Source of the DNA: Gammaproteobacteria bacterium
Lineage (GTDB): Bacteria > Pseudomonadota > Gammaproteobacteria > Steroidobacterales > Steroidobacteraceae
Direction: 5' to 3'
DNA: 64,000 bases
Assembly: GCA_005878095.1 (NCBI GenBank)
Contig: VBNH01000072.1
Location: 20,553-84,552 of the forward strand
Of the stretch, positions 16,334-64,000 are shown piece by piece (position 1 is the first letter of the stretch; every line of letters starts with the position of its first letter). The notes beneath the pieces are model-generated. The model saw only the letters and a list, made by a program, of their open reading frames with translations. It did not search any database and was not told the origin of the DNA. Both the position numbers and the translations under genes were made by a program.

Positions 16334-16354
16334 GGCGCTAGAATACGAGGACCG

Positions 16355-43648: not shown

Positions 43649-43663
43649 GGCTTGCGGCGTCCT

Positions 43664-49442: not shown

Positions 49443-49466
49443 CTTGAAGGCTGCGGGCGCACTGCA

Positions 49467-50063
49467 GTGTTTACCGGAATCGTCCAGGACATCGGCACGG
49501 TGCAGGCGCTCGAGGCGCGCGGCGGCGATGTGCGCCTCGTGATCGCCGCCCCCCACCTCGATCTGGCGCGCGTTCGCGTCGGCGACAGCCTGTGCGTGAG
49601 CGGCTGCTGCCTCACCGCGACCGAGGTGCAACCGCCCACCTTTGCGGCCGACCTCTCGCGCGAGACGCTCGCGCTCACGACGCTCGGAGAGCTCGTGCCT
49701 GGCGCGGCGGTGAATCTCGAGCCGGCGCTGCGCGCCGGGGAGCCGCTCGGCGGGCACCTGCTGTCGGGTCACGTGGACGGCGTCGGCGAGATCCTCAGCC
49801 GGGACGCCGATGCGCGCTCCCTGCGCCTCACCCTCGGCGCGCCCGCACCGCTCGAGCGTTTCCTGGCGGCGAAGGGCTCGGTAGCCGTCGATGGGGTGAG
49901 CCTCACCATCAACGCCGTGCAGCCGGGGAGCTTCGCGGTCAACATCATTCCCCACACTCAGGCGGTTACCACGCTCGGCAGCCTCGCGGTCGGGGCGCGC
50001 GTGAATCTCGAGGTCGACCAGGTGGCGCGCTACCTGGCACGGCTGCTCGAGAGGCCGCAGTGA
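49467..50063 (+). CDS. ribE: riboflavin synthase (alpha chain)
   Basis: MFTGIVQDIGTV, GDSLCVSGCCLT, and the duplicated barrel (VAVDGVSLTI). Confidence 0.95.
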   Translation: MFTGIVQDIGTVQALEARGGDVRLVIAAPHLDLARVRVGDSLCVSGCCLTATEVQPPTFAADLSRETLALTTLGELVPGAAVNLEPALRAGEPLGGHLLSGHVDGVGEILSRDADARSLRLTLGAPAPLERFLAAKGSVAVDGVSLTINAVQPGSFAVNIIPHTQAVTTLGSLAVGARVNLEVDQVARYLARLLERPQ

Positions 50064-50172
50064 GGGCGCAAGCTCGCGGCGGGGCGCAGCCGCCGCCCAG
50101 GGCTTGCCCGGTCGCCGCTAACCCCAGCGGGGTTGCACTTGAACAGTCTGTGATCCCGACAGCGCCATCGGG

Positions 50173-50805
50173 CTAGAGCTGGAGCAGGCCGCGCCTGATG
50201 GCGTAGCGCACCAGCCCGGCGATGTCGTGGATGTCGAGCTTCTTCATGATCCGGTTGCGGTGCGACTCTGCGGTCTTGAAGCTGATGCTGAGAAGACCCG
50301 CGATCGCTTTGGTGGTCTTGCCTTCGGCGATCAGCTGCAGGATCTGGCGTTCGCGCGCCGTAAGCGGGTCCTCGGGCTCATTGCTCTGATGCAGGTACGC
50401 GTCGACCAGCGACGTGGCCACGCCGGGGCTGATATAGATCGCGCCGCCCCTGACCTCCTGGATCGCACGGATCAGGTCGTCGGCCGCCTGCGTCTTCAGC
50501 ACGTAGCCCTTGGCGCCTGCCTGCAGCGCCTGCAGGACGTAGGGCCGATCGGTGTACATCGTCAGGAGAATGGCCCTGGTGTCGGGCGACACGCGATGGA
50601 TCTCGTGTATCGCATCCAGGCCGTTCAACAAAGGCATCGCCAGGTCGAGCACCGCGATGCCGGGCTGGAGACTCTTGGCGAGCTTGCAGGCCTCGTGTCC
50701 GTCGGAGGCCTCGCCGACCACCTCGTGTCCGGACTTCTCCAGCAGCGCGCGCACGCCCTGGCGCATGATCTGGTGGTCTTCGGCAAGCAATACCCGGGAG
50801 CCCAT
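50173..50805 (-). CDS. NarL/FixJ (LuxR-type HTH) response regulator
   Basis: Receiver VLLAEDHQIMRQG...AVLDLAMPLLNG, and HTH LTARERQILQLIAEGKTTKAIAGLLSISFKTAESHRNRIMKKL. ATG 50805 lies 1 nt after the kinase stop (TGAAATG), with a GGAGG ribosome-binding site. Confidence 0.9.
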   Translation of the reverse strand: MGSRVLLAEDHQIMRQGVRALLEKSGHEVVGEASDGHEACKLAKSLQPGIAVLDLAMPLLNGLDAIHEIHRVSPDTRAILLTMYTDRPYVLQALQAGAKGYVLKTQAADDLIRAIQEVRGGAIYISPGVATSLVDAYLHQSNEPEDPLTARERQILQLIAEGKTTKAIAGLLSISFKTAESHRNRIMKKLDIHDIAGLVRYAIRRGLLQL

Positions 50806-50806
50806 T

Positions 50807-51940
50807 TCACCTCCGCAGAGGAATTTCGGCCCGCAGGGTCGTGCCGCCGCCGGGCTGCGAGGCGATGTGCACTGAACCGCCGAGCGCGCCGAGGCGCTCG
50901 CGAATGCCGACCAATCCGAGCCCTGTGCCGCCCTCGAGCCTGTCCGCGGCGAAACCGACGCCGTCATCGCGCACGGTACACGATACGCGCTCGGTGGTCT
51001 GGCGAAGCTCGACGTTCGCCGTGCTCGCGCGGGCGTGCTTGATCACGTTGTTGAGCGCTTCCTGCGCGATCCGATAGAGCGTGATCTCCACGGCGGGCGC
51101 CAGGCGAGCGGCGAGCTTGCCGCTCACCGCGATGGCCACCCCGGCACGCCGGCCGACGTTCTCGGCAAGAAACTGCAGCGCAGGCACGAGCCCGAGCCGA
51201 TCGAGCACCATCGGCCGCAGCTCGTGGGAGAGGTTGCGCAGCTCCGTTTCGATCTTGCCCAGGAGCCACTTCACCTCGTTGAGACGCTCGCGATGACGCG
51301 GCGGCAGTTCGTCCGCGATGTCGGCGATCGCCATGTGCACCGAGGCGAGCAGTTGTCCGGCCTCGTCGTGCAGCGCGTGGGCGATCTTCTTTACCTCGTT
51401 TTCCAGCGTCTCGTTCAGCTCCCGCCACACGCGCGCGTCGCGGATCGCCTTCTGCTGCTCGCGGATGATGCGCTCTCGCTCCTGCACGAAACCGACGGCT
51501 ACGGTGTTGGCGATCCGGTTTGCCGCCGGCTCGTAAGCGTCCAGGATCCGGTTGAGCAGCTTGAAGTCCGATCGATACCTGGCGAAGAACGAGCGCGCGA
51601 GCACGTCGCGCAACAGCAGCACGACGCCCACGACCTCGTCGGTCTGGACCCCGCGCGGGACGATGCGCTCGGAGAGGTTGCGCGCATAGGCTTGCAATGC
51701 CTCGAACGTTCCCGTCTCCAGCGCATCCACGTAGTTGTCGTACACCGAGGTCACCTCGGCGAAGATCTCCTCGTCGGTCATCGTGTTCAGCAGCCTCGCC
51801 ATGATGATCCGGCGGGCCCACTCCTTGCGCAGCTCGGTGCGCTGCTGGCGCAGGTGGGCGACCAGCCCGCGCAGCAGCACAGCGCTCGAGTCGGCGCCCG
51901 TCTCGAGCGAACGCGGCGCTTTTGCCTGAACGTCTGTCAT
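50807..51940 (-). CDS. cytoplasmic sensor histidine kinase (HisKA_3/NarX-DegS type) with a helical N-terminal sensor domain resembling RsbR/RsbU N-terminal modules
   Basis: H-box IAHALHDEAGQLL, N-box AQEALNNVIKHA, G-boxes DDGVGF and GLGLVGIRERL. No hydrophobic TM span. Strong SD (GAGGAGG) before ATG 51940. The N-terminal domain assignment is tentative. Confidence 0.85.
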   Translation of the reverse strand: MTDVQAKAPRSLETGADSSAVLLRGLVAHLRQQRTELRKEWARRIIMARLLNTMTDEEIFAEVTSVYDNYVDALETGTFEALQAYARNLSERIVPRGVQTDEVVGVVLLLRDVLARSFFARYRSDFKLLNRILDAYEPAANRIANTVAVGFVQERERIIREQQKAIRDARVWRELNETLENEVKKIAHALHDEAGQLLASVHMAIADIADELPPRHRERLNEVKWLLGKIETELRNLSHELRPMVLDRLGLVPALQFLAENVGRRAGVAIAVSGKLAARLAPAVEITLYRIAQEALNNVIKHARASTANVELRQTTERVSCTVRDDGVGFAADRLEGGTGLGLVGIRERLGALGGSVHIASQPGGGTTLRAEIPLRR

Positions 51941-52015
51941 GGCTGCCTCCTCGGGGAAAAGCGGGGACGGAACATTTTAAATCCGGGCTTCGGCAGATGC
52001 AGGTTCAGATCCGGT

Positions 52016-53254
52016 TCAGATTCTGCGGAACACCAAACCGCCGTTGGTGCCGCCGAAACCGAATGAATTCGACAACGCGACGTCGATCTTCATCCGGCGC
52101 GCGGTGTGGGGCACGTAGTCCAGGTCGCACTGTGGATCCTGGCGAAAAACATTGATGGTCGGCGGTGCCACCTGGTCGCGCAGCGCCAGCGCGGAAAAAG
52201 CGGCCTCCAAGCCACCCGCGGCGCCGACCAGGTGTCCCGTCATCGATTTCGTCGAGCTCACCGCAATTCTTGCCGCGTGATCGCCGAAGCAGCGCTTGAT
52301 CGCGACCGTTTCGGCGATGTCGCCCAAGGGTGTCGAAGTACCGTGGGCGTTGATGTAGTCGACTTCGTCGCGGTTGACGCCGGCGTTCCTGAGCGCGTTT
52401 GCCATGCAGCGCATCGCTCCATCCCCGTCGTCGCAGGGCGCGGTGACATGGTGAGCATCGGAGCTCATGCCATAGCCCGCGAGCTCGCAGTAGATCTTGG
52501 CGCCGCGCGCCTTGGCGTGCGCGCATTCCTCGAGCACCACCACGCCCGCGCCCTCGCCCAATACGAAACCGTCGCGATCCTTGTCCCAGGGCCGGCTTGC
52601 GGTCTGAGGGTCGTCGTTGCGGCTGGACAATGCCCGCAGCGCGCATAAACCGGCCACGCCCAGCGGCGACAGCGTGCCCTCCGCGCCGCCGCAGATCATC
52701 ACGTCGGCATCACCATACTCGATCAGCCGGCCCGATTCGCCGATGCAGTGGGTGGCGGCGGCGCACGCGGTCGCGCTCGCGAGATTCGGACCCTTGAAAC
52801 CGTACAGGATCGAGAGATTACCCGCGACCATATTGATGATGGTGCCGGGCACGAAATACGGGGAAACCTTGCGCGCGCCGCCGTTATGCAGGCCGTCGTG
52901 GGCATCTTCGATCATGGGCAGGCCGCCGATGCCCGAGCCGATGTTGACTCCGATGCGGTGGGCGTTGTGCGGGCCGACCTGAATGCCGGCGTCCTTGATC
53001 GCTTCGATCGCCGCCGCCAGGCCGTAATGGACGAAGGTATCCATGCGGCGCGCTTCCTTGGGCGGCAAATAGCGGGTGACATCGAAACCCTTCACCTCGC
53101 CCGCGATCTGCGAGCCCAAGCCGGAGGGATCGAAGCGGGTAATGCGGGTGATTCCGGACTTGCCGGCAACGATATTGGACCACGCCTCGGTGACGCCGAT
53201 TCCGACTGGAGCAACGATGCCGAGACCGGTAACGACTACTCTGCGCTTTTCCAT
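52016..53254 (-). CDS. fabF: beta-ketoacyl-ACP synthase II (FabF-type)
   Basis: RVVVTGLGIVAPVG, active-site ATACAAATHCIG, HVTAP, HGTSTPLGD, SFGFGGTNG. It is a full-length canonical FabF but located inside the accessory cluster. Confidence 0.9.
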   Translation of the reverse strand: MEKRRVVVTGLGIVAPVGIGVTEAWSNIVAGKSGITRITRFDPSGLGSQIAGEVKGFDVTRYLPPKEARRMDTFVHYGLAAAIEAIKDAGIQVGPHNAHRIGVNIGSGIGGLPMIEDAHDGLHNGGARKVSPYFVPGTIINMVAGNLSILYGFKGPNLASATACAAATHCIGESGRLIEYGDADVMICGGAEGTLSPLGVAGLCALRALSSRNDDPQTASRPWDKDRDGFVLGEGAGVVVLEECAHAKARGAKIYCELAGYGMSSDAHHVTAPCDDGDGAMRCMANALRNAGVNRDEVDYINAHGTSTPLGDIAETVAIKRCFGDHAARIAVSSTKSMTGHLVGAAGGLEAAFSALALRDQVAPPTINVFRQDPQCDLDYVPHTARRMKIDVALSNSFGFGGTNGGLVFRRI

Positions 53255-53266
53255 AGGGCTTCACTG

Positions 53267-54343
53267 TTATGCCGTGAAATCTCCGCTTCGGTTTTGATCC
53301 GTGAGGCTGATCACGATTTTTCCCAATTGCTGCGCGCGCTCCAGGCGCTCGAAGCCAGAGCGCGCCTGCGCCAGCGGGTAGACCCGGTCGACCACGGGCC
53401 GCAGGGCGCCCGCGGCGAGGGCGCTGACCGCCGCCGCGTATTCCGCCGCATTGCCGAGCGTGGATCCCAGGAGAGCGTACTGATTCCAGAACAGCCGCCG
53501 GAGGTCGGTGACGACGCGGGGGCCAGTCGTGGCGCCGCAGGTCACCAGGCGGCCGCCCTTGGCGAGGACGCTCAACGAGCGTTCCCAGGTGGTCTCGCCG
53601 ACGTTTTCGATCACCACGTCCACGCCGCGGCGACCGGTCAAGGCGAGCACCTCCCTCACCACGTTTTGTTTCGCATGGTCGAGGGTGATATCGGCGCCGA
53701 GCTTGGTCGCCTGGGCGAGCTTCGCCTCGCTCGAGGACGTCGCGATCGTCCGAGCACCGCACAGCTTGGCGACCCGCATCGCGGCCAGGGACACCCCGCC
53801 CCCGATCCCCCAGACGAGGACTGTCTCGCCCGGCCGCACGCCGGCCCGCGTCACCACCATGCGCCATGCGGTGAGGGAGACGAGCGAGAATGCGGCCGCC
53901 TCGTCCCAGTCCAGAGGCGGGTCCAGGGTCGGGAGCCTGGCCAGGTTCTGCTCGGGAATGACCACGTACTCGGCGATCGTGCCCGGTAGGTGTTCCCCGA
54001 GTACCCGGAAATTCACGCACAGCGATTGATCGCCGGCGCGGCAGTACTCGCAGCTCCCATCCCATACGCCCGGATTGATCATCACCGGATCGCCCGGCCG
54101 CACGGCGGTCACCGCTTCCCCCACTTCCTGCACCACCCCCGACCCGTCCGAGCCCAGGATGTGGGGGAACCGGTACTTGACCGCCAGACCGCGGATCACG
54201 AAGACATCCAGACGATTCAGCGCGGCTGCCCGCACCGCCACCCGGACCTGGTGTGGACCCAAGCCCTGGGCCGAAGGGTCGGGAACGTCCGCGATCTCGA
54301 TCCGATCGAGGTCCCCCGTCGCGCTGATGACGCAGGCGCGCAT
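53267..54343 (-). CDS. MDR-superfamily zinc-type dehydrogenase/reductase (quinone oxidoreductase / enoyl reductase-like)
   Basis: MRACVIS..., GSDGSGVV in place of GHE, structural-Zn-like CEYCRAGDQSLC, and Rossmann VWGIGGGVSLAAM. Start at ATG 54343, not the track's 55576. Confidence 0.85.
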   Translation of the reverse strand: MRACVISATGDLDRIEIADVPDPSAQGLGPHQVRVAVRAAALNRLDVFVIRGLAVKYRFPHILGSDGSGVVQEVGEAVTAVRPGDPVMINPGVWDGSCEYCRAGDQSLCVNFRVLGEHLPGTIAEYVVIPEQNLARLPTLDPPLDWDEAAAFSLVSLTAWRMVVTRAGVRPGETVLVWGIGGGVSLAAMRVAKLCGARTIATSSSEAKLAQATKLGADITLDHAKQNVVREVLALTGRRGVDVVIENVGETTWERSLSVLAKGGRLVTCGATTGPRVVTDLRRLFWNQYALLGSTLGNAAEYAAAVSALAAGALRPVVDRVYPLAQARSGFERLERAQQLGKIVISLTDQNRSGDFTA

Positions 54344-54360
54344 GGTTTTTCCTTTCGTCC

Positions 54361-55491
54361 TCAATGGCCTCCTAATCCCCTCGGGCTGAGCACAACCCGA
54401 TTCATGCCGCACTGTCGGTCGTGCACCTCCTCGAAGGTCTCCCGGATCCGGTCCATGGGTCGGGTGGTGACGAGCGGCCGGATGCGGATCCTTTCCCGCA
54501 GCACCTGGTCCAGAACGTACGGGTAATGCTCGGGCGGGCAGCCCCAGGTGCCGCGGACCTCGGCGTCGTAGGCCATCAGTCGCGAGAGGTGGTAGGACAC
54601 CGGCTCCGGGCTGAAACCGACGACCACCACCATGCCGGCATAAGCCAGAAGTTCCAAAGCGGTCTCCTGCCCGGCCTGGGTCCCGCTCATCTCGAAGATC
54701 TTCCAGCCGGATCGGGCGTCGAGGCGGTTCTTCCGGCACAGAGACCGGAATTCCTTGCGGACCTCCCAAGGGCTGCGGCCGGCCGCAGGAAGAGGCAGGT
54801 CGACCCCGAAGGCCTGGCTCTGCGCCAACTTGTCCGGGCTGCGGCCGATGCCGATCACGACCTCGGCGCCCAGAAGCTTGGCCCACTGGGCCATGTAGAT
54901 CCCCAGGCCGCCGGTGACGCCGACGATGATGACCCGGTCGCCCTGCTCGAGACCGCCCCGCAGCGCCGCCTGATACGGTGTAGCCACCGCATCTGCCACC
55001 ACCGCCAGCAGCTCCAGGGGAATTCCGGCTTGCTCCGGGACCTCGCACAGCTCCCGGGTCGGCACCGGGATGTGGCTGGCGAAGCCCCCGTAGGGACCGT
55101 AGCTGTTCCCCGGCATCTTCTGCGACAGGCACCGGTTGGCCCGGCCGGCCCCACACAGCCCGCAACTCCGGCAGGGAAGAATGGTGGGAACAATGACTCT
55201 TTTCCCGACCCAGGAGGCGTCCCCGGCCACCACGGTTCCGCTGATCTCGTGCCCCAGGGTCAGAGGCGGCCTGGACACCGTGGGAATGCCGCCGAAGAAA
55301 TACCCGAGATCGGTCCCGCAGATGCCGCACCCGGCGATCTGGACCAGCGCCTCTCCCGGGGCAAGCGCCGGGAGAGGCAGGAGGCGCTGTTCGAGGTGGA
55401 AAGGCGGAGAGCCCCGCGCGTCTTCCCGCTCCCCGGCAGAAGCCACCATCTGCCAAGCCTGGATGGCCGAAGGCAGCGTCGATGCGGCCAC
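54361..55491 (-). CDS. zinc-dependent alcohol dehydrogenase family oxidoreductase
   Basis: CGICGTD, GHEISGTV, CRSCGLCGAGRANRC, and VGVTGGLGIYMAQ. Start uncertain: GTG 55491, 8 nt after the upstream stop, or ATG 55449. Confidence 0.8.
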   Translation of the reverse strand: MAASTLPSAIQAWQMVASAGEREDARGSPPFHLEQRLLPLPALAPGEALVQIAGCGICGTDLGYFFGGIPTVSRPPLTLGHEISGTVVAGDASWVGKRVIVPTILPCRSCGLCGAGRANRCLSQKMPGNSYGPYGGFASHIPVPTRELCEVPEQAGIPLELLAVVADAVATPYQAALRGGLEQGDRVIIVGVTGGLGIYMAQWAKLLGAEVVIGIGRSPDKLAQSQAFGVDLPLPAAGRSPWEVRKEFRSLCRKNRLDARSGWKIFEMSGTQAGQETALELLAYAGMVVVVGFSPEPVSYHLSRLMAYDAEVRGTWGCPPEHYPYVLDQVLRERIRIRPLVTTRPMDRIRETFEEVHDRQCGMNRVVLSPRGLGGH

Positions 55492-55499
55492 GAGTCCGG

Positions 55500-56273
55500 C
55501 TACCGGGCTTCGGTCCGCCGCAGCCACAGCGCCTCCAGGGCCGCCGCTTCCGCCGTGTGCCACGGCGTCCAGGCATCTGCAGATTCCCGCGGGCCGGCTT
55601 TGAGCGCCCGCAGGTCTGTCGCGTCCCGGGCCCGGAATGTTTCGATTGCCGTGCTCACCTGCCCCGCGAAATCCCGCCCTTCGAAAATCCGACCAACCAG
55701 GCCAACTCTGTAGGCGGCGCGGACGCCGAGGGAGTCCCCGCTGGTGACCAGCGCGAGGGCCTGCTCGGAGGCGAAGTGCCGGTGGAGGAACCGGATTCCC
55801 CCCCAGGCCGGAATCAGTCCCCGCTTGCATTCGGGAAAGCCGAAGACGGCGCGGGCGTGGGCCCACCGCAGATCACAGGCCAGGGCCAGCTCGAACCCGC
55901 CACCCAGGGCGAGGCCATTGATCGCAGCCACGGTCAGCGCATTCAGCCCTTCGAGGCGGCGGATGAGGGTCTGCCCTCGCCTGAAGAAATCCAAGGCTTC
56001 CCGGGGCGGGAGCGCTTCGATGGCCGCCAGATCGACTCCCACGGAGAAGACCTTTCCCTCCCCCCGCAGGACCAGCAGCTTGACGTGCTGCGCCTCGGCC
56101 ACGGCGGCGAGCGCGCCTTCGAGCTCGTCGAGCAACGCGGGCGAGATGGCGTTGCGGCCGTCCTCCCGGCGCAGGACCAGATGCGCGACACCGTGCGCAA
56201 TCGAGAGCCCGATCGACCCGCCGCCGCTCGCAGCGGGTTCAGGCCCGGGCGACACCGAGCAGCGAGACTCCAT
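55500..56273 (-). CDS. enoyl-CoA hydratase/isomerase (crotonase) family protein
   Basis: GVAHLVLRREDGRNAISPALLDEL, LRGEGKVFSVGVDL, and AAINGLALGGGFELALACDLR (oxyanion-hole region). Start uncertain: ATG 56273 overlaps the upstream gene by 35 nt; GTG 56255 is an alternative. Confidence 0.8.
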   Translation of the reverse strand: MESRCSVSPGPEPAASGGGSIGLSIAHGVAHLVLRREDGRNAISPALLDELEGALAAVAEAQHVKLLVLRGEGKVFSVGVDLAAIEALPPREALDFFRRGQTLIRRLEGLNALTVAAINGLALGGGFELALACDLRWAHARAVFGFPECKRGLIPAWGGIRFLHRHFASEQALALVTSGDSLGVRAAYRVGLVGRIFEGRDFAGQVSTAIETFRARDATDLRALKAGPRESADAWTPWHTAEAAALEALWLRRTEAR

Positions 56274-57198
56274 GACGGCTGGAAACGGGTAAGGCGATAT
56301 AGCCGGTTTTCTCCACCCGGAGGCGTTCAGTGGCCTTGATCCTGCCCGCCTGCAGCAGCGGCAGATATTCGGGGCCGATGCCCAACGGGTCGCCGAGATC
56401 GAGGTCAAGGGTTTCGGCCTCCGCCAGCGCCGCCACGGGCAGGGGCTGCGGGATCGCACGCGGCAGCCGGAAAGCCGGCGCGCAAGGGCGCGGCTGCGCA
56501 AGCCCCGGGCTCTCGAGCTCGATCTCGGTCAACACCACGCCTGCGCGCGCCCCCCGCTGCCGCGCCCGCTCGGTCCGTTCCAGGCAGAAAATACAGGACC
56601 ACTCTGAAACAGGCCGCGCCGCTTGCCCGTTCACCAGGCTCTCCGAAAAGCCGGTGAAGACCGTGTGGCAGCGTCCGGTTGCAAGCAGCTGCCGAGCCCG
56701 GCGCAGAAGAAGGAGCGAGAGGTTGGATCGGCCGGCCACGGTGAGATTCGGCCCCTTGATACCGTGGGCCAGGGCTGCCGTCGCCGCGGCGATGTTGTAG
56801 CCGAAGTTGGAGAACAGCGTGCTCGACAGGAGCTTTCCCTGCCGGGCGCGGAGCTGCTCGTAGGCCTTGTTCCGGGTCGCGCCGGGCCCCCGCGTAGCCG
56901 CCAGCAGGATGCCGAAGCCGTAGGGATCCTGCGCCACCGCGTCGGGCGCGATGCCCGCATCCCCCATCGCTTCCTCGAGGGCGACGATGGCGTTCTTCGC
57001 GAGCGGGTCCAGGTAACGGGCGATCTGCAGTTTGGGGCTTTTGATGCCGAGCAGCTCGGTGAGTCCCCCGGGGGGCAGCGAGCCATTCCCGGCGGTCCGG
57101 CACGGCGCCTCGGCTTCGCCCAGCGCGCGGAAAAAGCTCTCCTTGCCGCCCAGAGGGGAGAGGAGACCGATCCCCGTCAGCAGGATGTCGCCAGTCAT
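56239..57198 (-). CDS. beta-ketoacyl synthase-like protein lacking the active-site Cys (chain-length-factor / KS-beta-like partner)
   Basis: KS-like N-terminus ILLTGIGLLSPLGG. Where a KS has T-A-C-x-S/A-G, this protein reads KGPNLTVAGRSNLS, with no Cys. It is only ~320 aa, and I see no HGT or second-His motif. ATG 57198 overlaps the KS stop (ATGA). Confidence 0.75.
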   Translation of the reverse strand: MTGDILLTGIGLLSPLGGKESFFRALGEAEAPCRTAGNGSLPPGGLTELLGIKSPKLQIARYLDPLAKNAIVALEEAMGDAGIAPDAVAQDPYGFGILLAATRGPGATRNKAYEQLRARQGKLLSSTLFSNFGYNIAAATAALAHGIKGPNLTVAGRSNLSLLLLRRARQLLATGRCHTVFTGFSESLVNGQAARPVSEWSCIFCLERTERARQRGARAGVVLTEIELESPGLAQPRPCAPAFRLPRAIPQPLPVAALAEAETLDLDLGDPLGIGPEYLPLLQAGRIKATERLRVEKTGYIALPVSSRHGVSLLGVARA

Positions 57199-58436
57199 GG
57201 ATCGGTCCACTGGTCGGCGTTCACCCGGGAGAAGACGAGGGCGCCGTTGCAGCCGCCGAATCCAAAAGAGTTGCTGAGGGCGTGCTCGAGAGCGGCCACC
57301 CTGGCTTCGCCGCAGACCAGATTCAGGGGCAGTTCGGGGTCGGGCGCCGCCACGTTGAGGGTGGGCGGGATCTTCTGGTCCCGCAAGGAGAGCACCGTCG
57401 CGACCGCTTCGAGGGCGCCGGCGGCGCCCATGACATGGCCGATGGCCGGCTTGATCGAGGTGACCGGGATCCGCGCTGCGGCGGGCCCGAAGAGCTCTCG
57501 GATCGCCGCGTACTCCATGCCGTCATTCAAGGGGGTTCCGGATCCATGCAGGTTGATGTGGTCCACATCCTCCGCCTGGATGCCGGCATCCTCCAGGGCC
57601 TGCCCCATGACCTTGACCGCGCCCGCACCGCTCGGGTCGGGCCCGGTGATGTGATGTGCATCGCAGCTGTAACCGGTGCCGGCGCACGCGGCATAGGTGG
57701 GGAGTTCCTGCGCCAAGCTCTCGCGTTCCAGCACCAGGATCCCAGCCCCTTCGCCGAACAGGGTCCCGTCCCGCTCCGGGGTGAAGGGGCGGATGAGGGT
57801 CGGGGTCAGGGTATTGAGGGCCGAGTGTCCGAGGTATTTCATGCGGTCCAGCGTGTCCACCCCGCCGCACAGCACGACCTCGTAGCCCTCGTGCCGGATC
57901 ATGTCCTTCGCGATGCCGATGGCATTGGTGCCGGCGGCGCAGGCGGTGGTGACGATGAGTGCCTCGCTGCTCACGCGGTAAGCGTCCGCAAGCTCCTCGA
58001 CCAGGCCAGCAAAGTCGTCGTAGGTGTCGACCTGCTCCCCGCCGCACTCATCCAGCTGGTCGATCGACTTCTCCACCAGGGACATGCCCAGCGAGGTGCC
58101 GAGCACCAGCCCGACCTTTTTCTTCTGCAGGTAAGCCCGGGTCCAGCCGGCATCCTTCAGCGCCTCGTCCATCGCCAAGCGGGCAAAGAGAGCGATGCGA
58201 GAGTCCAGCCGGTAGCGCTCCGCGTATTCCCGTTGGGCCGCAGAGAGCCGGATCTCCCCGGCGAGCACATTGCGCAGGTGTTCCTGGCGGAAGTTGGCGA
58301 CCGGCTTGATGCCGGTCCTACCGGCCAGAAGCCCGTCCCACAACTGGGCGGTGTCCTCGCCGAGCGCGCTCACGCTGCCCAGTCCGGCGACCAGGACCCT
58401 GGGCAGGGAGAGGCCTCTTCCAGAAGCGTCAGCCAC
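57195..58436 (-). CDS. beta-ketoacyl-ACP synthase (KS-alpha, FabB/F-like)
   Basis: VLVAGLGSVSALG, active-site VTTACAAGTNAIG, DAHHITGP, LHGSGTPLND, SFGFGGCNG. The GTG start overlaps the ACP stop. Confidence 0.9.
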   Translation of the reverse strand: MADASGRGLSLPRVLVAGLGSVSALGEDTAQLWDGLLAGRTGIKPVANFRQEHLRNVLAGEIRLSAAQREYAERYRLDSRIALFARLAMDEALKDAGWTRAYLQKKKVGLVLGTSLGMSLVEKSIDQLDECGGEQVDTYDDFAGLVEELADAYRVSSEALIVTTACAAGTNAIGIAKDMIRHEGYEVVLCGGVDTLDRMKYLGHSALNTLTPTLIRPFTPERDGTLFGEGAGILVLERESLAQELPTYAACAGTGYSCDAHHITGPDPSGAGAVKVMGQALEDAGIQAEDVDHINLHGSGTPLNDGMEYAAIRELFGPAAARIPVTSIKPAIGHVMGAAGALEAVATVLSLRDQKIPPTLNVAAPDPELPLNLVCGEARVAALEHALSNSFGFGGCNGALVFSRVNADQWTDP

Positions 58437-58758
58437 GGCTTTCCGAGACCACGGGCTCGTCCCCCCGGGCGGCGATCTTGGCGAGGACGAGGCTGCTCAG
58501 CCGGTCCAGGGTCCGCAGATTCTCGCTCGCGGCCTCGTCGCTGCTGATCTCGATCCCGTATTTCTCCTCGAGGATCGTGACGAGCTCGATCAAGCCCACC
58601 GAGTCGACGCCGAGATCGCTGGCTATGGAATCCTCCAGCTTGATCTCGCCCTCGGGGATGGACACAAAAAGATCCTCGACGAGGACCTTCTTCAACTCCT
58701 TTACGATCGTTTCCTTGTCGGTCAAGGCGTGTTCCTCACTCTCGGATTGATGACTCAT
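58429..58758 (-). CDS. acyl carrier protein (dedicated)
   Basis: 109 aa. The phosphopantetheine site is DLGVDSVGLIEL. Its ATG overlaps the ligase stop (ATGA). Confidence 0.9.
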   Translation of the reverse strand: MSHQSESEEHALTDKETIVKELKKVLVEDLFVSIPEGEIKLEDSIASDLGVDSVGLIELVTILEEKYGIEISSDEAASENLRTLDRLSSLVLAKIAARGDEPVVSESRG

Positions 58759-60299
58759 AGGGGTTCAGGCTGCTTCAGGCGGGCGCCGATCTGTTTCGCC
58801 GGCCTCCCCTTGAAGTGGTAGAGCTGCGGGTCATAGAACCGGAACTCGGAGGGAATCAGAAAGGCGGGCAGATGCCTGCGGCACAAGCTCTTCAGTTCCT
58901 GCACCAGGGACTCCTCCGAAGACACCCGGGCCTTGAGGGTGGCGAGAAGGTGTTCCCCTTGGGCGCTTTCCACCCGGGTGACGTGCACTTCCTGCACGTC
59001 GGGATGGGTGAAGATGATCTGTTCGATGTAGCCGGGGTGCACCTTGCGGCCCCGGAACTTGAATTCCCCGTCCCGGCGCCCGAGCAGGTAGAGAAAACCA
59101 TCGGCGTCCAGCCGGCCGAAGTCCCCGGTGAAAAGCCAGCCGTCGCGGACTCTCGCGGCAGTCTGGACTTCATCCCGGAAATATCCGTTCATCAGGGAAG
59201 GGGTCTGCAGCACCACTTCCCCGAGTTCTCCCGGCGGGCAGGGGTGCCCCGCCGGGTCCAGGATGGCGATCTCCACCCCCCGCAAGGCGCGACCCACCGA
59301 CTGGGGCAGCGAGGCGAAGAACTGCGGCGCCAGCGTGGACACCCGGGGGCCGGCTTCACTCAAGCCATAGGTAATGTAGCAACGGGTCCAGGGCAGGCAG
59401 CCCTGTATCAAATTGGCCACGTTCGGCCGGCAGCGGTCGCCACCCACGGTGAGATAGCGCAGCGAGCGCAGGGCCCGGAAGTCGCCGCCACGGTTCTGCA
59501 GCAGGTATTGGAAGATGACCGGGCTTCCCATCAAGAGGTTGGCGCCGTAGCGCTCCACCAGGGTGTGGACGAGTTTCAGCTCGATGACATGGGGTGTCAG
59601 GACGGTCGTGCCATGCAGGCGCAGGGTACTGAGCAGGCAGGCGTTCAGCCCGTAGCTGTAATTCACCGGCAAGACCTGGAGGGAAATGATCTCCCCCTGG
59701 AGGGCCAGGCTTTCCAGGTGCATGTCGATGTTGCGGCGGATCGCCCGGTGGCTGAGCCGGACCGCCTTTGGATGCCCGGTGGTACCCGAGGTCAGTATGA
59801 ACAGCGCATCCTCCTCAGGATCGGCGACCGGGCGAGCATCGGGGACTGACTCGGCGCGGGGCACGTCCCCGCAGAAGGCGACCTGCAGGCCGGTCCCGTC
59901 CACCTCCACGAGGCAGCACGCCGTGCCGCTCAACGCTGCCTTGATCCTGCGCTGCAGGCTCGTGTTGGTAATGATGAGCGCGGGCTTGAGGAAGCCGAGG
60001 ATGACCCGCAGCTCCCTGGGCTTGGTGTAGATGTCAAGGGGAATAGCCACCCCGCCGACCTCGGAGACGGCGAAGAGCGCAACCACGAACTCCGGAGAGC
60101 CCGGCAGGAGGAGGACGATCCGCTGCCGGCGCACGGCGGTCCGTTCCCTGAGGCGAGCCGCCAGAGCCCGGCTGTGCCGGCAGAGCTCGGCGTAGCTCAG
60201 CTCGAGGCCGTCCTCCGGTGATACCAGGGCGACTCTGCTCGAGCCCCGGTGCTGGTATAGCAGCTCGTGGAGGAACCCGGAGTTGTCCGGTGCCGACAT
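58755..60299 (-). CDS. ANL-superfamily acyl-AMP/acyl-ACP(CoA) ligase
   Basis: LTSGTTGHPKAV, ITYGLSEAG, and GDFGRLDADGFLYLLGRRDGEFKFRGRKV. ATG 60299 is preceded by an AGGAGG ribosome-binding site; the track start at 60656 is an artefact. Confidence 0.85.
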   Translation of the reverse strand: MSAPDNSGFLHELLYQHRGSSRVALVSPEDGLELSYAELCRHSRALAARLRERTAVRRQRIVLLLPGSPEFVVALFAVSEVGGVAIPLDIYTKPRELRVILGFLKPALIITNTSLQRRIKAALSGTACCLVEVDGTGLQVAFCGDVPRAESVPDARPVADPEEDALFILTSGTTGHPKAVRLSHRAIRRNIDMHLESLALQGEIISLQVLPVNYSYGLNACLLSTLRLHGTTVLTPHVIELKLVHTLVERYGANLLMGSPVIFQYLLQNRGGDFRALRSLRYLTVGGDRCRPNVANLIQGCLPWTRCYITYGLSEAGPRVSTLAPQFFASLPQSVGRALRGVEIAILDPAGHPCPPGELGEVVLQTPSLMNGYFRDEVQTAARVRDGWLFTGDFGRLDADGFLYLLGRRDGEFKFRGRKVHPGYIEQIIFTHPDVQEVHVTRVESAQGEHLLATLKARVSSEESLVQELKSLCRRHLPAFLIPSEFRFYDPQLYHFKGRPAKQIGARLKQPEPL

Positions 60300-60307
60300 C
60301 GCGCCTC

Positions 60308-60865
60308 CTACCACGGGGCGTCCGCGAAGCGAGCGACGCGGGTCTTGGCCAAGGTCAGCCCGCCCTTGACGACGCTGCGATCGCCGACGGCGGCATCTCC
60401 GACGAAGATACCGATCGCTTCCTCGAGCTTCTTCGGCCTCATCGCCATCTCCAGGGTATCGCCGGGATAGATCGGCGCCAGAAACCGGAATTTCACCGAC
60501 GTGATCAGCGTCATCTCGTCGTCCGTGATCTGGCCCATGGACAGCTTGAAGAAAATGATCGCCAATTGAGCGAAGCCCTGGACGACTTGGGTGGCGGGCA
60601 TGATGGCCCGCTTGGGGAAGTGACCGACCAACTCGGGGGAATTGCCGGTCACGCACTTGATGGCCTCGATGTATTCCCCCTCACGGTAGTCGGTGATCCG
60701 ATCGAGCATGATGAGCGGATATCGGTGCTCCAAGTACTTTTCCTTCATCTCGGAGAAGCCGATGACCCTCTTGCCGTTCTTTTCCACCCTGGGAGCAGGC
60801 TCTCGCAACGCGGCCTCCCGGAAAGATTGAGTCGGGGACGAAACGTATCCTGGCTTTGCAGGCAT
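60308..60865 (-). CDS. FabZ/FabA-like 3-hydroxyacyl-ACP dehydratase (hotdog fold)
   Basis: LEHRYPLIMLDRI (compare LPHRYPFLLVDRV) and GHFPKRAIMPATQ with the catalytic His. Start uncertain: TTG 60919, ATG 60865 or ATG 60751. Confidence 0.8.
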   Translation of the reverse strand: MPAKPGYVSSPTQSFREAALREPAPRVEKNGKRVIGFSEMKEKYLEHRYPLIMLDRITDYREGEYIEAIKCVTGNSPELVGHFPKRAIMPATQVVQGFAQLAIIFFKLSMGQITDDEMTLITSVKFRFLAPIYPGDTLEMAMRPKKLEEAIGIFVGDAAVGDRSVVKGGLTLAKTRVARFADAPW

Positions 60866-60956
60866 CAGAAAAATTCCGAGCTCGTCTACGCGCTCAATTA
60901 GAGACGAGATGGCGATCAAGAAAAATCGGGCAAATGCTGCAAAATATGAGGGGCAA

Positions 60957-61892
60957 CTACCCGATCGAGCCGGTCACCCGATCCCGACGCCTAGTACTCT
61001 CTGCGTCGCCGTACTCTCTGCGTCGCCGCAGGAAGCCCAGCAAGAGCTCGTTGAACACCCGAGGGCGCTCGAGCATCGGCGAGTGTCCGCACTGCGGGAT
61101 CGTCTGGAGGTGGAGGGTGTCGAGCGCGCGCGCCCACAGCTTCCAATATTCGACCGGCGTCACCCGGTCGTTCTCGCCCCAGGCCAAAAGGACCGGACAC
61201 CGTATCTCCGGGAGAATGTCCTCGAGCGGGTACTCGCGGCTTGCTTTGAGGGCGCGCACGGCGTTGGCGAAGTGGTGCCGCTCCGAGAGCACGTCGGCGG
61301 TCCGCCGGATCATGTCCTCGGTCGCGCGGCTGGGATCGTGAAACAGGTTCTCCACGAGCCGCAAGACAAACTCCCGCGATATTTGGCGCGGGGTCCCGAT
61401 CGCCAGGTTGATCTCCGGTTCGAGCCCCGGTGCGCCGCTCACCACCAGCGAGTCCACCCGCTGCGGGTAATGACGGGCAAAATCCAGCGCCACGAGCCCA
61501 CCCAGGGAGTTGCCGCACAGCGTGCAGCGCTCCACCGCGTGTTCGTCCAGCACGGCGCACAGGGCGGGGCGCAGATCTTCGATTCCGCCTGAACGCCAGT
61601 CGAGGACCGCGAGCGGATCGAGCAACCGGATGACGCCGAACCCCTCCGCGCGGAGGCGAGCGCTCGTAGACTCCCAGAGCCACTCGCCGGCGAAGAGCCC
61701 GGGCAACAGCGCGACCGAGGCTTTCGTCCGGGAGGAGGGAGCGTAGTCGTATCGGAACCCCGCAGGCTCGATCCCTGCTGCGGGTAACAAGTCAGGCACG
61801 GTAGATGTGACGTCCGGCTCAAGGTTTGAGTCGGCGCAGGTGTTGTTGGTCACGGAAAAGGCCGCGGTGACCGTGTTGCCAACAGTGGCCAC
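60957..61892 (-). CDS. alpha/beta hydrolase (MhpC/BioH-like fold); C-terminus altered by a 17-bp duplication
   Basis: Nucleophile elbow GNSLGG, VSGAPG, GENDRVTP, and the catalytic His in QCGHSPMLE. The GTG start at 61892 is uncertain. Confidence 0.75.
   Translation of the reverse strand: MATVGNTVTAAFSVTNNTCADSNLEPDVTSTVPDLLPAAGIEPAGFRYDYAPSSRTKASVALLPGLFAGEWLWESTSARLRAEGFGVIRLLDPLAVLDWRSGGIEDLRPALCAVLDEHAVERCTLCGNSLGGLVALDFARHYPQRVDSLVVSGAPGLEPEINLAIGTPRQISREFVLRLVENLFHDPSRATEDMIRRTADVLSERHHFANAVRALKASREYPLEDILPEIRCPVLLAWGENDRVTPVEYWKLWARALDTLHLQTIPQCGHSPMLERPRVFNELLLGFLRRRREYGDAESTRRRDRVTGSIG
60994..61027. repeat. perfect 17-bp tandem duplication (GTACTCTCTGCGTCGCC x2) inside the 3' end of the hydrolase gene
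   Basis: Units at 60994-61010 and 61011-61027. An out-of-frame TAG (60993..60991 on the minus strand) directly follows. Confidence 0.95.
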
Positions 61893-61927
61893 ATCGGGTT
61901 CGGTCGGTTGGAGGTGGAATCAATCTA

Positions 61928-62007
61928 ACGGTTGCGGCACGAGGAGAACATCGGGTGAAAACAGGAACGCACGATCGTCAAATCCCGTAGCGGGCCAGCG
62001 TCAAATG
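61928..62007 (-). promoter_or_regulatory. conserved ~80-nt upstream module, copy 1 (two ATTTGACG direct repeats 23 nt apart)
   Basis: Minus-strand reading: CATTTGACGCTGGCCCGCTACGGGATTTGACGATCGTGCGTTCCTGTTTTCACCCGATGTTCTCCTCGTGCCGCAACCGT. It lies directly upstream of hydrolase gene 60957..61892 and is about three-quarters identical by eye to 63221-63301. Confidence 0.6.
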
Positions 62008-62056
62008 CCTGCCGATATCATCGCAAAGCGATGACACTCGTCCCTACGATGAGATC

Positions 62057-63115
62057 TCATTGGAGTGCGTGTGCGCCTCGTCGCGGGCTCGCACCGCCGG
62101 CGACCGAAGGGCCGATCATGGCGAGGATCTCCTCTACCAGCGTCCTCCCAAAGAGAAATGCCGTTCTGTGTCCCGCCGGGAGCCACCGGATCGGCGGCTG
62201 GCCGTGCGTCTGCCAGAGCTCCTCCGTAAATTTGCGCGGCAGGAGGAGGTCGTACCGGGCATTGAGCATCAGCAGGCGGCGCGCCTGGCTCCGTCCGGCG
62301 TAGGAGGTGGGATTTCCCGCGGCCCACAGGGCGGCGAGCCTGGAGCGCGTCATCCCCCGCGCCTCCATGGCCCGACGGTACGCCTGGGTGAGCGGGCTTT
62401 CCCACACGATCCCCGCGACGTCTCCCCCCGCGATCACGGAAACTCCCAAGTCCAGAGGCTCGAGGGCCATGAGGACGTGGGCGAGAACCCCGCCGAGGCT
62501 GAACCCCACCACACCCACCGGCGCGCCGCGCCCGCGCAGCAAGCTCAGAGCGGCGCGGCTATCGACGACGGCCTGTCGGAAGGCGGCCGCGGTCCAGAGA
62601 GGGTCGCCTGAAAGGAAGCAGCCCCCGCTCGGCGTCCCCCGCAGCGCTCGCTCCCAGTGAAACGGTAGGGACATGAGCGCGGCGCTCACGCCCTGGCCCG
62701 CCAGACCCCGGCAGAACCGGTCTTCGAACCATCGGTCCTGGCGCCAGATTCCGGGCAGGACGAGGAGAGCAAAGCGGGAGCGATGATGATGGGCGGGACG
62801 GTAAAAGCGAACCGCGACCCGGTCATTCGCAGCGATCCCCAAGGGGACCGTGCTCGAGAATGCCAGCTGCTCGATCGCGAGCCCGTCGGCTTCATCGAGT
62901 TTCTCCCGGACTTCGGGACGGACGGGCGGCGGGGGCGGGTAAAAGCGGCTCGGCTCCCTGAGCGCCAGGGGATCCAGGCAGGCCGTCTCGGAGAGAGGGC
63001 TGGCGCCCGGTGCCGCCAGCGCCGGCGAGGGGATCCGGCGAGCCCCGACGCGGTCGCACCACTCGCAGAGCCTGCGCCAAAGCCCGCCGTCCAGCCTGGC
63101 TGCGTTGGGGCACAT
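62057..63115 (-). CDS. alpha/beta hydrolase family protein
   Basis: Nucleophile elbow GFSLGG, a Pro-rich N-terminal segment, and HRTAF near the C-terminus. Start uncertain: ATG 63115, or TTG 63133 as in the track. Confidence 0.7.
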   Translation of the reverse strand: MCPNAARLDGGLWRRLCEWCDRVGARRIPSPALAAPGASPLSETACLDPLALREPSRFYPPPPPVRPEVREKLDEADGLAIEQLAFSSTVPLGIAANDRVAVRFYRPAHHHRSRFALLVLPGIWRQDRWFEDRFCRGLAGQGVSAALMSLPFHWERALRGTPSGGCFLSGDPLWTAAAFRQAVVDSRAALSLLRGRGAPVGVVGFSLGGVLAHVLMALEPLDLGVSVIAGGDVAGIVWESPLTQAYRRAMEARGMTRSRLAALWAAGNPTSYAGRSQARRLLMLNARYDLLLPRKFTEELWQTHGQPPIRWLPAGHRTAFLFGRTLVEEILAMIGPSVAGGASPRRGAHALQ

Positions 63116-63220
63116 CGAATCAATCCGCAGCAAGGCAGATCGTCACTCAACCTGAACGGCGTATCCCGGGGTCGCGATCATCGTCTGCTTTCTTCCGCCA
63201 GTTGCGATTGCGGTGAGCCT

Positions 63221-63301
63221 ACGGTTGCGGCGAGAGGAGAACAATCCGGTAAAAACGCCAAAGCGCGAGCGTCAAATCCCGTAAGTGGCCCACGTCAAAT
63301 T
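63221..63301 (-). promoter_or_regulatory. conserved ~80-nt upstream module, copy 2
   Basis: Minus-strand reading: AATTTGACGTGGGCCACTTACGGGATTTGACGCTCGCGCTTTGGCGTTTTTACCGGATTGTTCTCCTCTCGCCGCAACCGT. It lies about 90-105 nt upstream of hydrolase gene 62057..63115/63133. Confidence 0.6.
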
Positions 63302-63429
63302 CCACAGTTGCGATGAAGAACCTGCGCTCCATCGAAGGTGCACGCGAAGTTGGCTCGAGGACGGTGGCTGCGAGAGCGGCCGGAAATGTTATGTTGCCGT
63401 TTGTTGCCGCGGCAGGCGGCGCCTTGGCG

Positions 63430-63474
63430 CCATATCAGCGGGGCCGCCATATCAGCGGGGCCATATCAGCGGGG
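63430..63474. repeat. three copies of CCATATCAGCGGGG (63430-43, 63447-60, 63461-74)
   Basis: Read directly. Spacing is 17 then 14 nt, ending 73 nt upstream of the ribB start. Confidence 0.9.
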
Positions 63475-63547
63475 AGGGAGTTGGTACGCGCCGTGCGCCG
63501 GCGAGTGCTCGGGTATACTGACGGGCCGTATCACCCGGCCGCGCACC

Positions 63548-64000
63548 ATGTCCAAGATCCTGCCACTGACCGGTAAGGGCGCACCCGCACCCCAGGCGCC
63601 GGCGCTCAATTCCGTCGCGGAGATTCTCGCCGAGCTGCGCGCCGGCCGCCTGGTCGTCATCATGGACGATGAGGATCGCGAGAACGAGGGCGATCTCATC
63701 ATGGCCGCCGAGCGCGTGACGCCCGAAGCGGTCGCCTTCATGATCCGCCACACGAGCGGCATCATCTGCGTGCCGATGGAGGAGCAGCACCTGGCGCGTC
63801 TGGAGCTGCCGCAGATGGTGCCGGTGAACGACCAACAGCAGCGCACCGCCTTCACCGTGTCGGTGGATGTGCGCGCCGGCACCACCACCGGCGTGTCCTC
63901 GGCCGACCGCGCGGCGACCATCCGCGCGCTCGCGGCCGAGGCCTCGGTGGCCGGCGATTTCGCCCGGCCGGGGCACATTTTCCCGCTGCGCTCGCGCCGC
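63548..64000 (+). CDS. ribB: 3,4-dihydroxy-2-butanone-4-phosphate synthase (RibB; probably the N-terminal domain of bifunctional RibBA), partial, runs off the window end
   Basis: Not in the ORF track. My translation from ATG 63548: MSKILPLTGKG...VAEILAELRAGRLVVIMDDEDRENEGDLIMAAERVTPEAVAFMIRHTSGIICVPM...RTAFTVSVD...GTTTGVSSADRA...FARPGHIFPL, the canonical RibB motifs. Confidence 0.9.
   Translation, partial: MSKILPLTGKGAPAPQAPALNSVAEILAELRAGRLVVIMDDEDRENEGDLIMAAERVTPEAVAFMIRHTSGIICVPMEEQHLARLELPQMVPVNDQQQRTAFTVSVDVRAGTTTGVSSADRAATIRALAAEASVAGDFARPGHIFPLRSRR

Follow-up and report, generated by a model that had tools for sequence, protein, structure and literature searches.

The window analysed here, a stretch of 64,000 nucleotides from contig VBNH01000072.1 of a Steroidobacteraceae assembly (GCA_005878095.1), carries a real, conserved and uncharacterised biosynthetic operon of uncultured soil bacteria. 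Its 13 co-directional minus-strand genes, a kinase/regulator pair (50173-51940) included, lie within positions 50173-63115, as determined by the open reading frame (ORF) listing, framing by G+C content at third codon positions (GC3), and inspection of start sites. Its likeliest function is to form a small carbon ring while the intermediate is bound to a carrier protein, to reduce this ring, and to extend it to an unusual lipid-like acid. From the families to which its proteins belong, we hypothesize that the core of the operon (a hotdog-fold protein, a ligase, an acyl carrier protein (ACP), a ketosynthase (KS), and a KS-derived partner lacking the catalytic cysteine) may be a distant, undescribed branch of the cassette that makes coronafacic acid and cispentacin, joined to a set of ring-reducing enzymes; we put the probability of this reading at roughly 0.45, somewhat below even. 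The families of the ring-reduction set are otherwise known from alicyclic thioester metabolism.

An earlier sequence-only reading of the window had concluded that the cluster fits no family it could name. The cluster is indeed uncharacterised, but the closest known system, the carbocycle-forming cassette of Cfa1-5 and AmcB and AmcE-H (PMC10698177), had been missed. In cispentacin and coronafacic acid biosynthesis, AmcH loads 2-oxoglutarate on the carrier AmcB; the heterodimer AmcF-AmcG, a KS with a "cyclization factor" (CYF), performs one malonyl extension and a cyclisation to give 3-oxocyclopent-1-ene-1,2-dicarboxyl-ACP; the hotdog protein AmcE decarboxylates this product to 5-oxocyclopent-1-ene-1-carboxyl-ACP; and the double bond of the ring is finally reduced by FabI (Hibi et al. 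2023; PMC10698177). The same work applies the term "CFA-type" to clusters that have homologues of amcB, E, F, G and H (PMC10698177). The operon resembles these clusters in its predicted ACP-loading ligase, its dedicated ACP, a Cys-containing KS encoded directly before a Cys-less KS-derived partner, and an AmcE/Cfa2-type hotdog protein in the same coupled unit; in both, malonyl transferase and phosphopantetheinyl transferase (PPTase) are missing from the cluster, and an enoyl or ene reductase is needed after decarboxylation.

The link through the hotdog protein is specific. The best NCBIfam model of this protein is the AmcE "cyclizing decarboxylase" (NF058663), whose cutoff of 140 bits it passes narrowly at 141.8-142.9 bits, while against the FabZ model it scores 99 bits, under the cutoff of 113. 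The AmcE model is matched at E<=1e-30 by 24 of the 25 aligned sequences; by profile search the hotdog family has about 97 clusters. When 72,556 plasmids were searched by tblastn, Cfa2 topped the matches at 37-39% identity, above every FabZ. The hotdog family and Cfa2 have in common the motif HFPERAIxP (ERAIxP) and a C-terminal Trp. Where FabZ has its catalytic Glu68, the two Cfa2-type proteins in the alignment have Gln, and so do the window protein and each of the 21 other family members sampled; Glu stands there in E. coli FabZ only. Relatives of the hotdog protein also match the Pfam ApeI-like family. The label "dehydratase" given to this protein earlier is probably wrong, because the protein is of the AmcE/Cfa2 type and lacks the catalytic Glu of FabZ; it is predicted to be a decarboxylase of a carboxylated ring intermediate.

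The genes of the operon, with models set by inspection of start codons, ribosome-binding sites and homologues, are as follows (MDR, medium-chain dehydrogenase/reductase):

62057-63115, minus strand: alpha/beta hydrolase 2 (ABH2), with a GFSLGG nucleophile elbow.
60957-61892, minus strand: alpha/beta hydrolase 1 (ABH1), with GNSLGG; the start codon is uncertain.
60308-60787, minus strand: hotdog protein of the AmcE/Cfa2 type; FabA/FabZ fold by Pfam.
58755-60299, minus strand: predicted acyl-AMP/ACP ligase; Pfam AMP-binding and AMP-binding_C.
58429-58758, minus strand: ACP; Pfam PP-binding, LGVDS motif.
57195-58436, minus strand: KS; Pfam ketoacyl-synt N and C domains, GTG start.
56239-57198, minus strand: Cys-less KS partner of 319 amino acids (aa); the N-terminal KS domain alone is detected by Pfam.
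55500-56273, minus strand: crotonase; Pfam ECH_1 and ECH_2.
54361-55491, minus strand: MDR2, Zn-dependent dehydrogenase of the Had family; NCBIfam TIGR03201.
53267-54343, minus strand: MDR1, an MDR without catalytic zinc ligands; predicted enoyl/ene reductase.
52016-53254, minus strand: FabF (KAS II); NCBIfam fabF equivalog.
50807-51940, minus strand: cytoplasmic NarL-class sensor histidine kinase (HK); Pfam RsbRD_N-like N-terminus, HisKA_3 and HATPase_c.
50173-50805, minus strand: LuxR/NarL-type response regulator (RR), paired with the HK; Pfam Response_reg and GerE.

The eleven minus-strand ORFs that had been placed at 52016-63133 are all found there by the ORF listing and Pfam, and the Pfam domains agree with every label they had been given. 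Read from the sequence, the ligase/ACP and KS/partner junctions are 4-nt ATGA overlaps, as had been described; the ACP/KS junction, taken for another of these, is an 8-nt overlap, GTGGCTGA, in which the KS starts with GTG. The crotonase gene starts about 35 nt inside the partner gene; at the remaining junctions there are gaps of 8-75 nt. The view of a single, tightly coupled and uncharacterised pathway of the type II polyketide synthase/fatty acid synthase (PKS/FAS) kind is supported. The Cys-His-His triad is intact in FabF and in the KS (motifs TACAAG, HGSGT and GHVMGAAG), and the KS-like partner has Gly at the Cys position. Pfam and NCBIfam scans of the genes of the block found no short-chain dehydrogenase/reductase (SDR), malonyl transferase, PPTase, cyclase, desaturase or exporter. 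A 349-codon open frame with high GC3 runs on the plus strand at 56608-57654, antisense to the KS and partner genes; in a window of about 70% GC it is most likely a high-GC shadow ORF.

The cluster was compared by tblastn and blastn with related loci from metagenomes and metagenome-assembled genomes (MAGs), about 30 in all, including 4 MAG loci and 19 metagenome loci, which are cited by number (L001 and so on) where they must be told apart. The genes for KS, partner, crotonase and Had-like MDR are syntenic in every locus that is long enough, except L030 and L031, where only a 141-aa ADH_N fragment was called at the MDR position; the genes for hotdog protein, ligase and ACP lie upstream of the KS wherever the contig extends that far. 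Because KS, partner, crotonase and MDR2 keep this order in about 30 related loci wherever contigs reach, the gene arrangement is not chance. The host GC of the relatives is 52-67%. Four of the loci belong to the species-representative genome collection (two in a single MAG, "Bacillati bacterium ANGP1", one in an unclassified MAG, and one in a Deltaproteobacteria MAG), and a close lineage is 88-98% identical to the window cluster.

The comparison also separates what is constant from what is not. The conserved unit consists of seven genes (hotdog, ligase, ACP, KS, partner, crotonase and Had-like MDR), usually accompanied by a FabF-type KS and an ene-reductase. Accessory and lineage-specific are MDR1, the two hydrolases and the kinase/regulator pair. 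The eleven genes are thus not the one invariant unit they had been taken for, since MDR1 shows a clean presence/absence polymorphism in the close lineage and both hydrolases are confined, among the loci examined, to the close lineage. In blastn comparisons, positions 53268-54336 (about the whole MDR1 gene) are unaligned in L005, L012 and L013; MDR1 is present in the window, L001, L015, L016 and L017. FabF lies downstream of the core in the close relatives, where it is 93-98% conserved; a FabF-like KS (46-49%) lies upstream of the hotdog gene in L003, L019, L020 and L022, another is called there in L032, and FabF is absent from the distant loci L008, L030 and L034. Between the crotonase and the Had-like MDR, several distant loci encode an ene-reductase of the Old Yellow Enzyme (OYE) family: L008 at 11242-12411, L032 at 15397-16503 (L032/33), and L034 at 15533-16675. 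This enzyme is the positional equivalent of a step that MDR1 or FabI may carry out in the window lineage, and it fits an enone intermediate.

MDR2, one of the enzymes joined to the core, passes the Had equivalog TIGR03201 (6-hydroxycyclohex-1-ene-1-carbonyl-CoA dehydrogenase) at 393.5 bits against a cutoff of 338.65; it matches the solved Had structures PDB 7quy and 7qul at 266 bits, with the next PDB match at 85 bits; it is 45% identical to 7quy over 317 residues; and it has the catalytic Zn ligand motifs GICGTD and GHE. It is predicted to be an oxidoreductase of a ring beta-keto/beta-hydroxy group. The sequence-only reading had suggested that the MDRs stand in for ketoreductase (KR) and enoyl reductase (ER) steps, which agrees with these assignments, and its aside on an alicyclic starter built by MDRs gains from the placing of MDR2 among the Had-family alicyclic beta-hydroxyacyl-thioester dehydrogenases. 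MDR1 has AALNRLD and GSDGSG in place of the Cys/His zinc-ligand motifs; its best NCBIfam families, all under cutoff, are crotonyl-CoA carboxylase/reductase, PIG3 quinone oxidoreductase and acryloyl-CoA reductase, and its top PDB match is 2eih. Because the zinc ligands are lacking and the best matches are to enoyl-thioester reductase models, the comparison suggests that MDR1 is a C=C (enoyl or ene) reductase. The crotonase, in which both canonical catalytic Glu residues (GGGFELA and FGFPE) are invariant in 9 orthologues, is a predicted crotonase-fold (de)hydratase. It could not be placed as Dch, Oah or BadK, its best 25 of 73 NCBIfam matches and its PDB matches being generic. FabF passes the fabF equivalog TIGR03150 at 643 bits (cutoff 493.75) and is predicted to extend the ACP-bound product, accepting an unusual primer. 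It resembles FabF/KAS II of type II FAS in passing this model with its triad intact and differs in its setting, a specialised cluster without acpP, fabD, fabG, fabZ or fabI.

Taken step by step from family membership and the published Amc chemistry, the pathway would begin with the ligase, which would adenylate a keto-dicarboxylic acid and load it on the ACP; the acid may be 2-oxoglutarate, the substrate of AmcH, or a homologue, for example 2-oxoadipate. That the ligase loads a starter acid onto the dedicated ACP is suggested solely by the ATGA coupling of the two genes, and its substrate could not be inferred from its NCBIfam or PDB matches, which are generic. The KS-partner heterodimer (read from the genes, with a structure predicted for the partner alone) would then add one malonyl unit, and an intramolecular aldol closure would give an oxo-cycloalkene-dicarboxyl-ACP, from which the AmcE-type hotdog protein would remove the extra carboxyl. 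The resulting oxocycloalk-1-ene-1-carboxyl-ACP would be a five- or six-membered analogue of the Had product. An ene-reductase would saturate the enone (MDR1 or the housekeeping FabI in the window, OYE in the distant relatives), the Had-type MDR2 would reduce the ring beta-keto group to a hydroxyl, the crotonase would dehydrate it, and an enoyl reductase would yield a cycloalkane- or cycloalkene-carboxyl-ACP. FabF and the host FAS would lengthen this primer, and the product, either a short alicyclic acid or an omega-alicyclic fatty acid, would be released or transferred by the alpha/beta hydrolases, or by patatin-like enzymes in other lineages.

A Had-type enzyme beside an AmcE-type cassette is chemically coherent, we infer, because the AmcE product is a ring-contracted analogue of 6-oxocyclohex-1-ene-1-carbonyl-CoA. 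A 2-oxoadipate starter would give exactly the six-membered skeleton of the Had substrate, with an intermediate that would be the ACP form of the Had product. The starter need not be 2-oxoglutarate, since the ligase and partner are not orthologues of AmcH and AmcG. A more specific version, which we regard as unlikely, is that uncultured soil bacteria make alicyclic primers de novo by an undescribed route that draws on neither shikimate nor phenylacetate: cyclisation of an ACP-bound keto-diacid by the KS-partner pair and decarboxylation, followed by a reversed lower benzoyl-CoA pathway (Had-type reductase, crotonase dehydratase, ene/enoyl reductases), would give cyclopentane- or cyclohexane-carboxyl-ACP, which FabF would extend to omega-alicyclic membrane fatty acids.

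Several results weigh against membership in this branch or against the proposed steps. The reference proteins Cfa1-5, from a Pseudomonas tremae plasmid, score 116/80, 264/140, 539/325, 207/80 and 569/370 bits (score/cutoff) against the Amc models, or 1.4-2.6 times the cutoffs, while the window proteins mostly score below: the hotdog protein alone reaches an Amc cutoff, by just 2-3 bits. The ligase scores 154 bits against the AmcH model (cutoff 370) and higher against generic acyl-CoA ligase models in NCBIfam, its best PDB match being 4-coumarate-CoA ligase at 158 bits; falling below the model cutoff, it is not assigned as an AmcH orthologue. The KS scores about equally on AmcF (300 bits, cutoff 325; Cfa3 scores 539) and on fabF (318 bits, cutoff 494); by pairwise identity, 35% to Cfa3 as against 38% to the cluster's own FabF, it is no closer to Cfa3. 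The partner reaches 14 bits against AmcG (cutoff 80), and hhalign gives its family a probability of 0.2% against Cfa4. Some relatives of the cluster lack FabF or MDR1, the thioesters on which Had enzymes act are those of CoA rather than of ACP, and the starter acid, the size of the ring, the sequence of reductions and the final product are predictions. The best NCBIfam match of the ACP is AmcB, at 73 bits (cutoff 80; Cfa1 scores 116), and its identity to Cfa1 is 32%. Because Cfa1-5 clear the Amc cutoffs by wide margins, the window proteins are better seen as a putative distant branch than as orthologues.

Beyond the ligase, partner, KS and ACP, all under the Amc cutoffs, the operon differs from the Cfa/Amc clusters in gene order, in having no aminotransferase, thioesterase (AmcC/D) or type I PKS (Cfa6/7), and in having a Had-type MDR, crotonase, ER/OYE and FabF instead. 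The partner differs as well: it has about 320 aa and a recognisable KS N-domain, whereas AmcG and Cfa4 have 160-180 aa and no recognisable motifs. Since AmcG scores 14 bits and hhalign gives 0.2% against Cfa4, an AmcG-based search is unlikely to find clusters like this one, which was therefore probably not included in the published survey. Among follow-up literature on cispentacin-type clusters we found none that describes the architecture of the operon, and in the literature searched, the combination of Had, crotonase and ene-reductase tailoring with this distinctive partner is not described for carbocycle-forming KS-CYF systems.

The partner was also modelled. With a 16-sequence alignment the AlphaFold model was unusable (pLDDT 49), and a 36-sequence alignment was used instead (pLDDT 85, pTM 0.89); the top Foldseek match of this model in the PDB is the ishigamide chain-length factor (CLF) Iga12 (6kxf_B, TM 0.61/0.55), with FabFs close behind. 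At about 320 aa (319 in the window, 177 in Cfa4), the partner is more like the CLF found in an iterative, highly reducing type II PKS than like a CYF of 160-180 aa, a further point against the proposed kinship. Pfam finds no Ketoacyl-synt_C match in it. An exhaustive search of 1.84 billion representatives with the partner profile returned 23 clusters at E<=1e-30, and its close homologues, about 20, are all metagenomic. A two-sequence Cfa4 HMM gave nothing significant against all the partner-like proteins collected. We do not claim the partner as an orthologue of the CYF (AmcG/Cfa4), for which hhalign and the Cfa4 HMM gave no significant result and the AmcG model fell short of its cutoff; from the structural model, it is predicted to be a KS partner subunit in a role equivalent to that of a CLF or CYF. 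The partner profile also matched two short KS-N-domain-like proteins, P0059 (221 aa, E 1e-15) and P0116 (230 aa, E 2.5e-10), which in NCBIfam match nothing but the model of the cyclization factor AmcG (33 and 28 bits). Such proteins of about 220 aa, matched by both profiles, give the one link between the partner and AmcG, and an indirect one; they are possible evolutionary intermediates between KS-like partners and the CYF and hint at, without proving, a continuum from KS to CYF.

The resemblance to Iga12 raises an alternative that we consider doubtful but that has more in its favour than the others: the cluster may encode a non-canonical iterative reducing type II PKS or FAS, in which a monocarboxylic starter (fatty, aryl or other) would undergo several extensions to a linear alkyl or polyene lipid or signal, with MDR2 as KR, the crotonase as dehydratase and MDR1 or OYE as ER on the linear chain. 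This alternative lies close to the sequence-only reading. The structural match of the partner is to the CLF of just such an iterative system, the KS is full-length and FabF-like, the ligase resembles generic fatty-acyl or aryl-CoA ligases, and activities of the KR, dehydratase and ER types are all represented. The hotdog protein, however, is a member of the AmcE/Cfa2 decarboxylase family without the catalytic Glu of a dehydratase, and a linear pathway would have no need of it; MDR2 is specifically of the Had family (266 as against 85 bits), and the known Had substrate is a cyclic beta-hydroxy-enoyl thioester; no KR of the SDR type is present; and the relatives contain OYE. Enzymes of the OYE family favour enones over simple enoyl thioesters. 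We therefore disfavour linear iteration, on account of the missing Glu in the hotdog protein and of the specific likeness of MDR2 to Had.

The same features set the cluster apart from the described highly reducing type II PKSs, the ishigamide (Iga11/Iga12) and aryl-polyene (ApeO/ApeC) systems. Like them, it has a KS with a Cys-less partner, a discrete ACP and loading of the starter by an AMP-ligase, with Iga12 as the best structural match of the partner and relatives of the hotdog protein matching the ApeI-like Pfam family. It differs in having no SDR ketoreductase, a hotdog protein without the dehydratase Glu, and reductive enzymes of the MDR, crotonase and OYE types, the last in relatives. 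Neither the block nor any of the related loci examined has LolA/MMPL export genes or glycosyl- or acyl-transferases. Membership in the aryl-polyene or highly reducing type II PKS group was rejected because there is no SDR among the 13 genes and Gln occupies the Glu position of the hotdog protein (22/22 family members). It had been stated earlier that the cluster is not of the aryl-polyene, ole, polyyne, dialkylresorcinol (DAR) or diffusible signal factor (DSF) kind, and our comparison concurs.

ABH1 matches Pfam Abhydrolase_6/1, with every NCBIfam match under cutoff and its best PDB matches to the metagenomic esterase 5jd6 and the C-C hydrolases BphD and MhpC; it is a candidate release or transfer enzyme. 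ABH2 has a weak Pfam match to ABHD18, 62 bits against the NCBIfam model of the RcgR-family lactone hydrolase (cutoff 182), and a sole PDB match to the uncharacterised protein 4z8z. It is present in L007, L011, L012, L015 and L016, and absent upstream of the hotdog gene in L002, L003, L030, L032 and L034. The HK-RR module (50154-51986) adjoins the cluster in L001, L005, L012, L013 and L016; it is co-directional with the biosynthetic genes in the window and L016 only, and inverted in the other four. The pair had been described as closing the operon, which does not hold in general, since it is inverted in most relatives. No inverted repeats were found flanking the module, and so its orientation looks like an evolutionary inversion rather than a switch; the idea of an invertible switch was dropped. 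The pair probably controls expression of the operon.

In the relatives, patatin-like lipases are encoded directly after the MDR in L019 (12788-13729), L022 (10638-11597) and L030 (15919-16833), and a fatty-acid desaturase in L001 (6453-7637). B12-binding radical SAM enzymes are found in L008 and L034, MaoC dehydratases in L008 and L030, and an acyl-CoA dehydrogenase in L034 (coordinates of these accessory genes: L008 4149-5693; L034 18067-19473 and 8778-9962). These accessory genes point to lipid-type or further ring-modified products.

It is conceivable, though we think it unlikely, that the same ring chemistry ends in a small free alicyclic acid or signal (a hydroxy- or oxo-cycloalkane carboxylate, similar to jasmonate or coronafacate), which would be sensed by the adjacent two-component system, with FabF adding at most 1-2 units. 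In its favour, the close lineage keeps the kinase/regulator pair beside the cluster, ABH2 bears a weak resemblance to a family of putative quorum-lactone hydrolases, FabF is absent from L008, L030 and L034, and the known relatives, the coronafacic acid and cispentacin systems, make small bioactive molecules. Set against this, a FabF-type KS is kept with the core in close and distant groups, at different positions; lipid-type genes (the patatin-like lipases, the desaturase of L001, and a MaoC dehydratase) lie near the cluster elsewhere; and the similarity of ABH2 is far under cutoff.

Very improbable, and rejected because of the coupling of ACP and KS genes, is a module for the breakdown of an alicyclic or aromatic acid, in which the ligase would activate the acid and the Had-like dehydrogenase and crotonase would act as in the lower benzoyl-CoA pathway (Dch, Had, Oah): MDR2 passes the Had equivalog and has a crotonase-fold enzyme at its side, just as Had has Dch and Oah, a ligase is also in the set, and the distant locus L034 has an acyl-CoA dehydrogenase, but the ACP, two to three ketosynthase-family proteins and the AmcE-type hotdog protein are joined to the ligase by translational coupling and are conserved together throughout, Pfam and NCBIfam find no benzoyl-CoA reductase, recognisable Oah-type ring-opening hydrolase or beta-oxidation thiolase, and the crotonase has hydratase-type Glu residues. 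The cluster further differs from that pathway in its biosynthetic ACP/KS context, which holds in all loci, in its generic crotonase, and in a predicted direction that is reductive, on a substrate that is probably ACP-bound.

The block stands between ribE (49443-50063) and ribBA (63317-64000, start approximate), which are normally adjacent; the arrangement glyA-ribD-ribE...ribBA is otherwise standard. The rest of the window is housekeeping (secDF, hisS, bamB, der, guaBA, xseA, purL, mprF-virJ, glyA, ribD and ribE). The GC of the block (50140-63300) is 66.4%, as against 69.7% for the remainder of the window; its homology to L016, a metagenome locus that is nearly identical, breaks off at 50140; and other close relatives (92-96% identity) have the block between unrelated flanks. 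Taken together, the insertion between ribE and ribBA, the lower GC, the end of the homology to L016 and the differing flanks suggest an island that was acquired or is mobile. Its boundaries were found to have neither an integrase nor a tRNA nor a repeat. Rfam detected no riboswitch near ribBA or the cluster, and a scan for promoters and terminators gave counts at or below shuffle expectation and is uninformative for the host organism. Elsewhere in the window, on the minus strand, an MprF-type lysyl-phosphatidylglycerol synthase (41060-43663) and, after it, a VirJ-domain protein (39555-41210) form a lipid-modification pair that has no connection with the cluster, and a type VI secretion FHA-domain (TagH-like) protein (33135-34445) stands alone among housekeeping genes; the sole tRNA is tRNA-Ser(CGA), at 32806-32898 on the plus strand.

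If the ring-forming reading is true, the ring chemistry of a KS with a partner, found in 2023 for coronatine and cispentacin, reaches into a much more divergent and structurally less reduced branch, and the partner of about 320 aa may show how a motif-less cyclization factor arose from a ketosynthase. The pathway predicts a series of mass shifts on the carrier protein: the load, +C2 with cyclisation, -44, +2, +2 and -18. Ring-forming chemistry would be linked to enzymes known only from anaerobic aromatic degradation, running here in the biosynthetic direction, and the operon would be a candidate for the genes behind alicyclic acids or omega-alicyclic lipids of uncultured lineages in soil.

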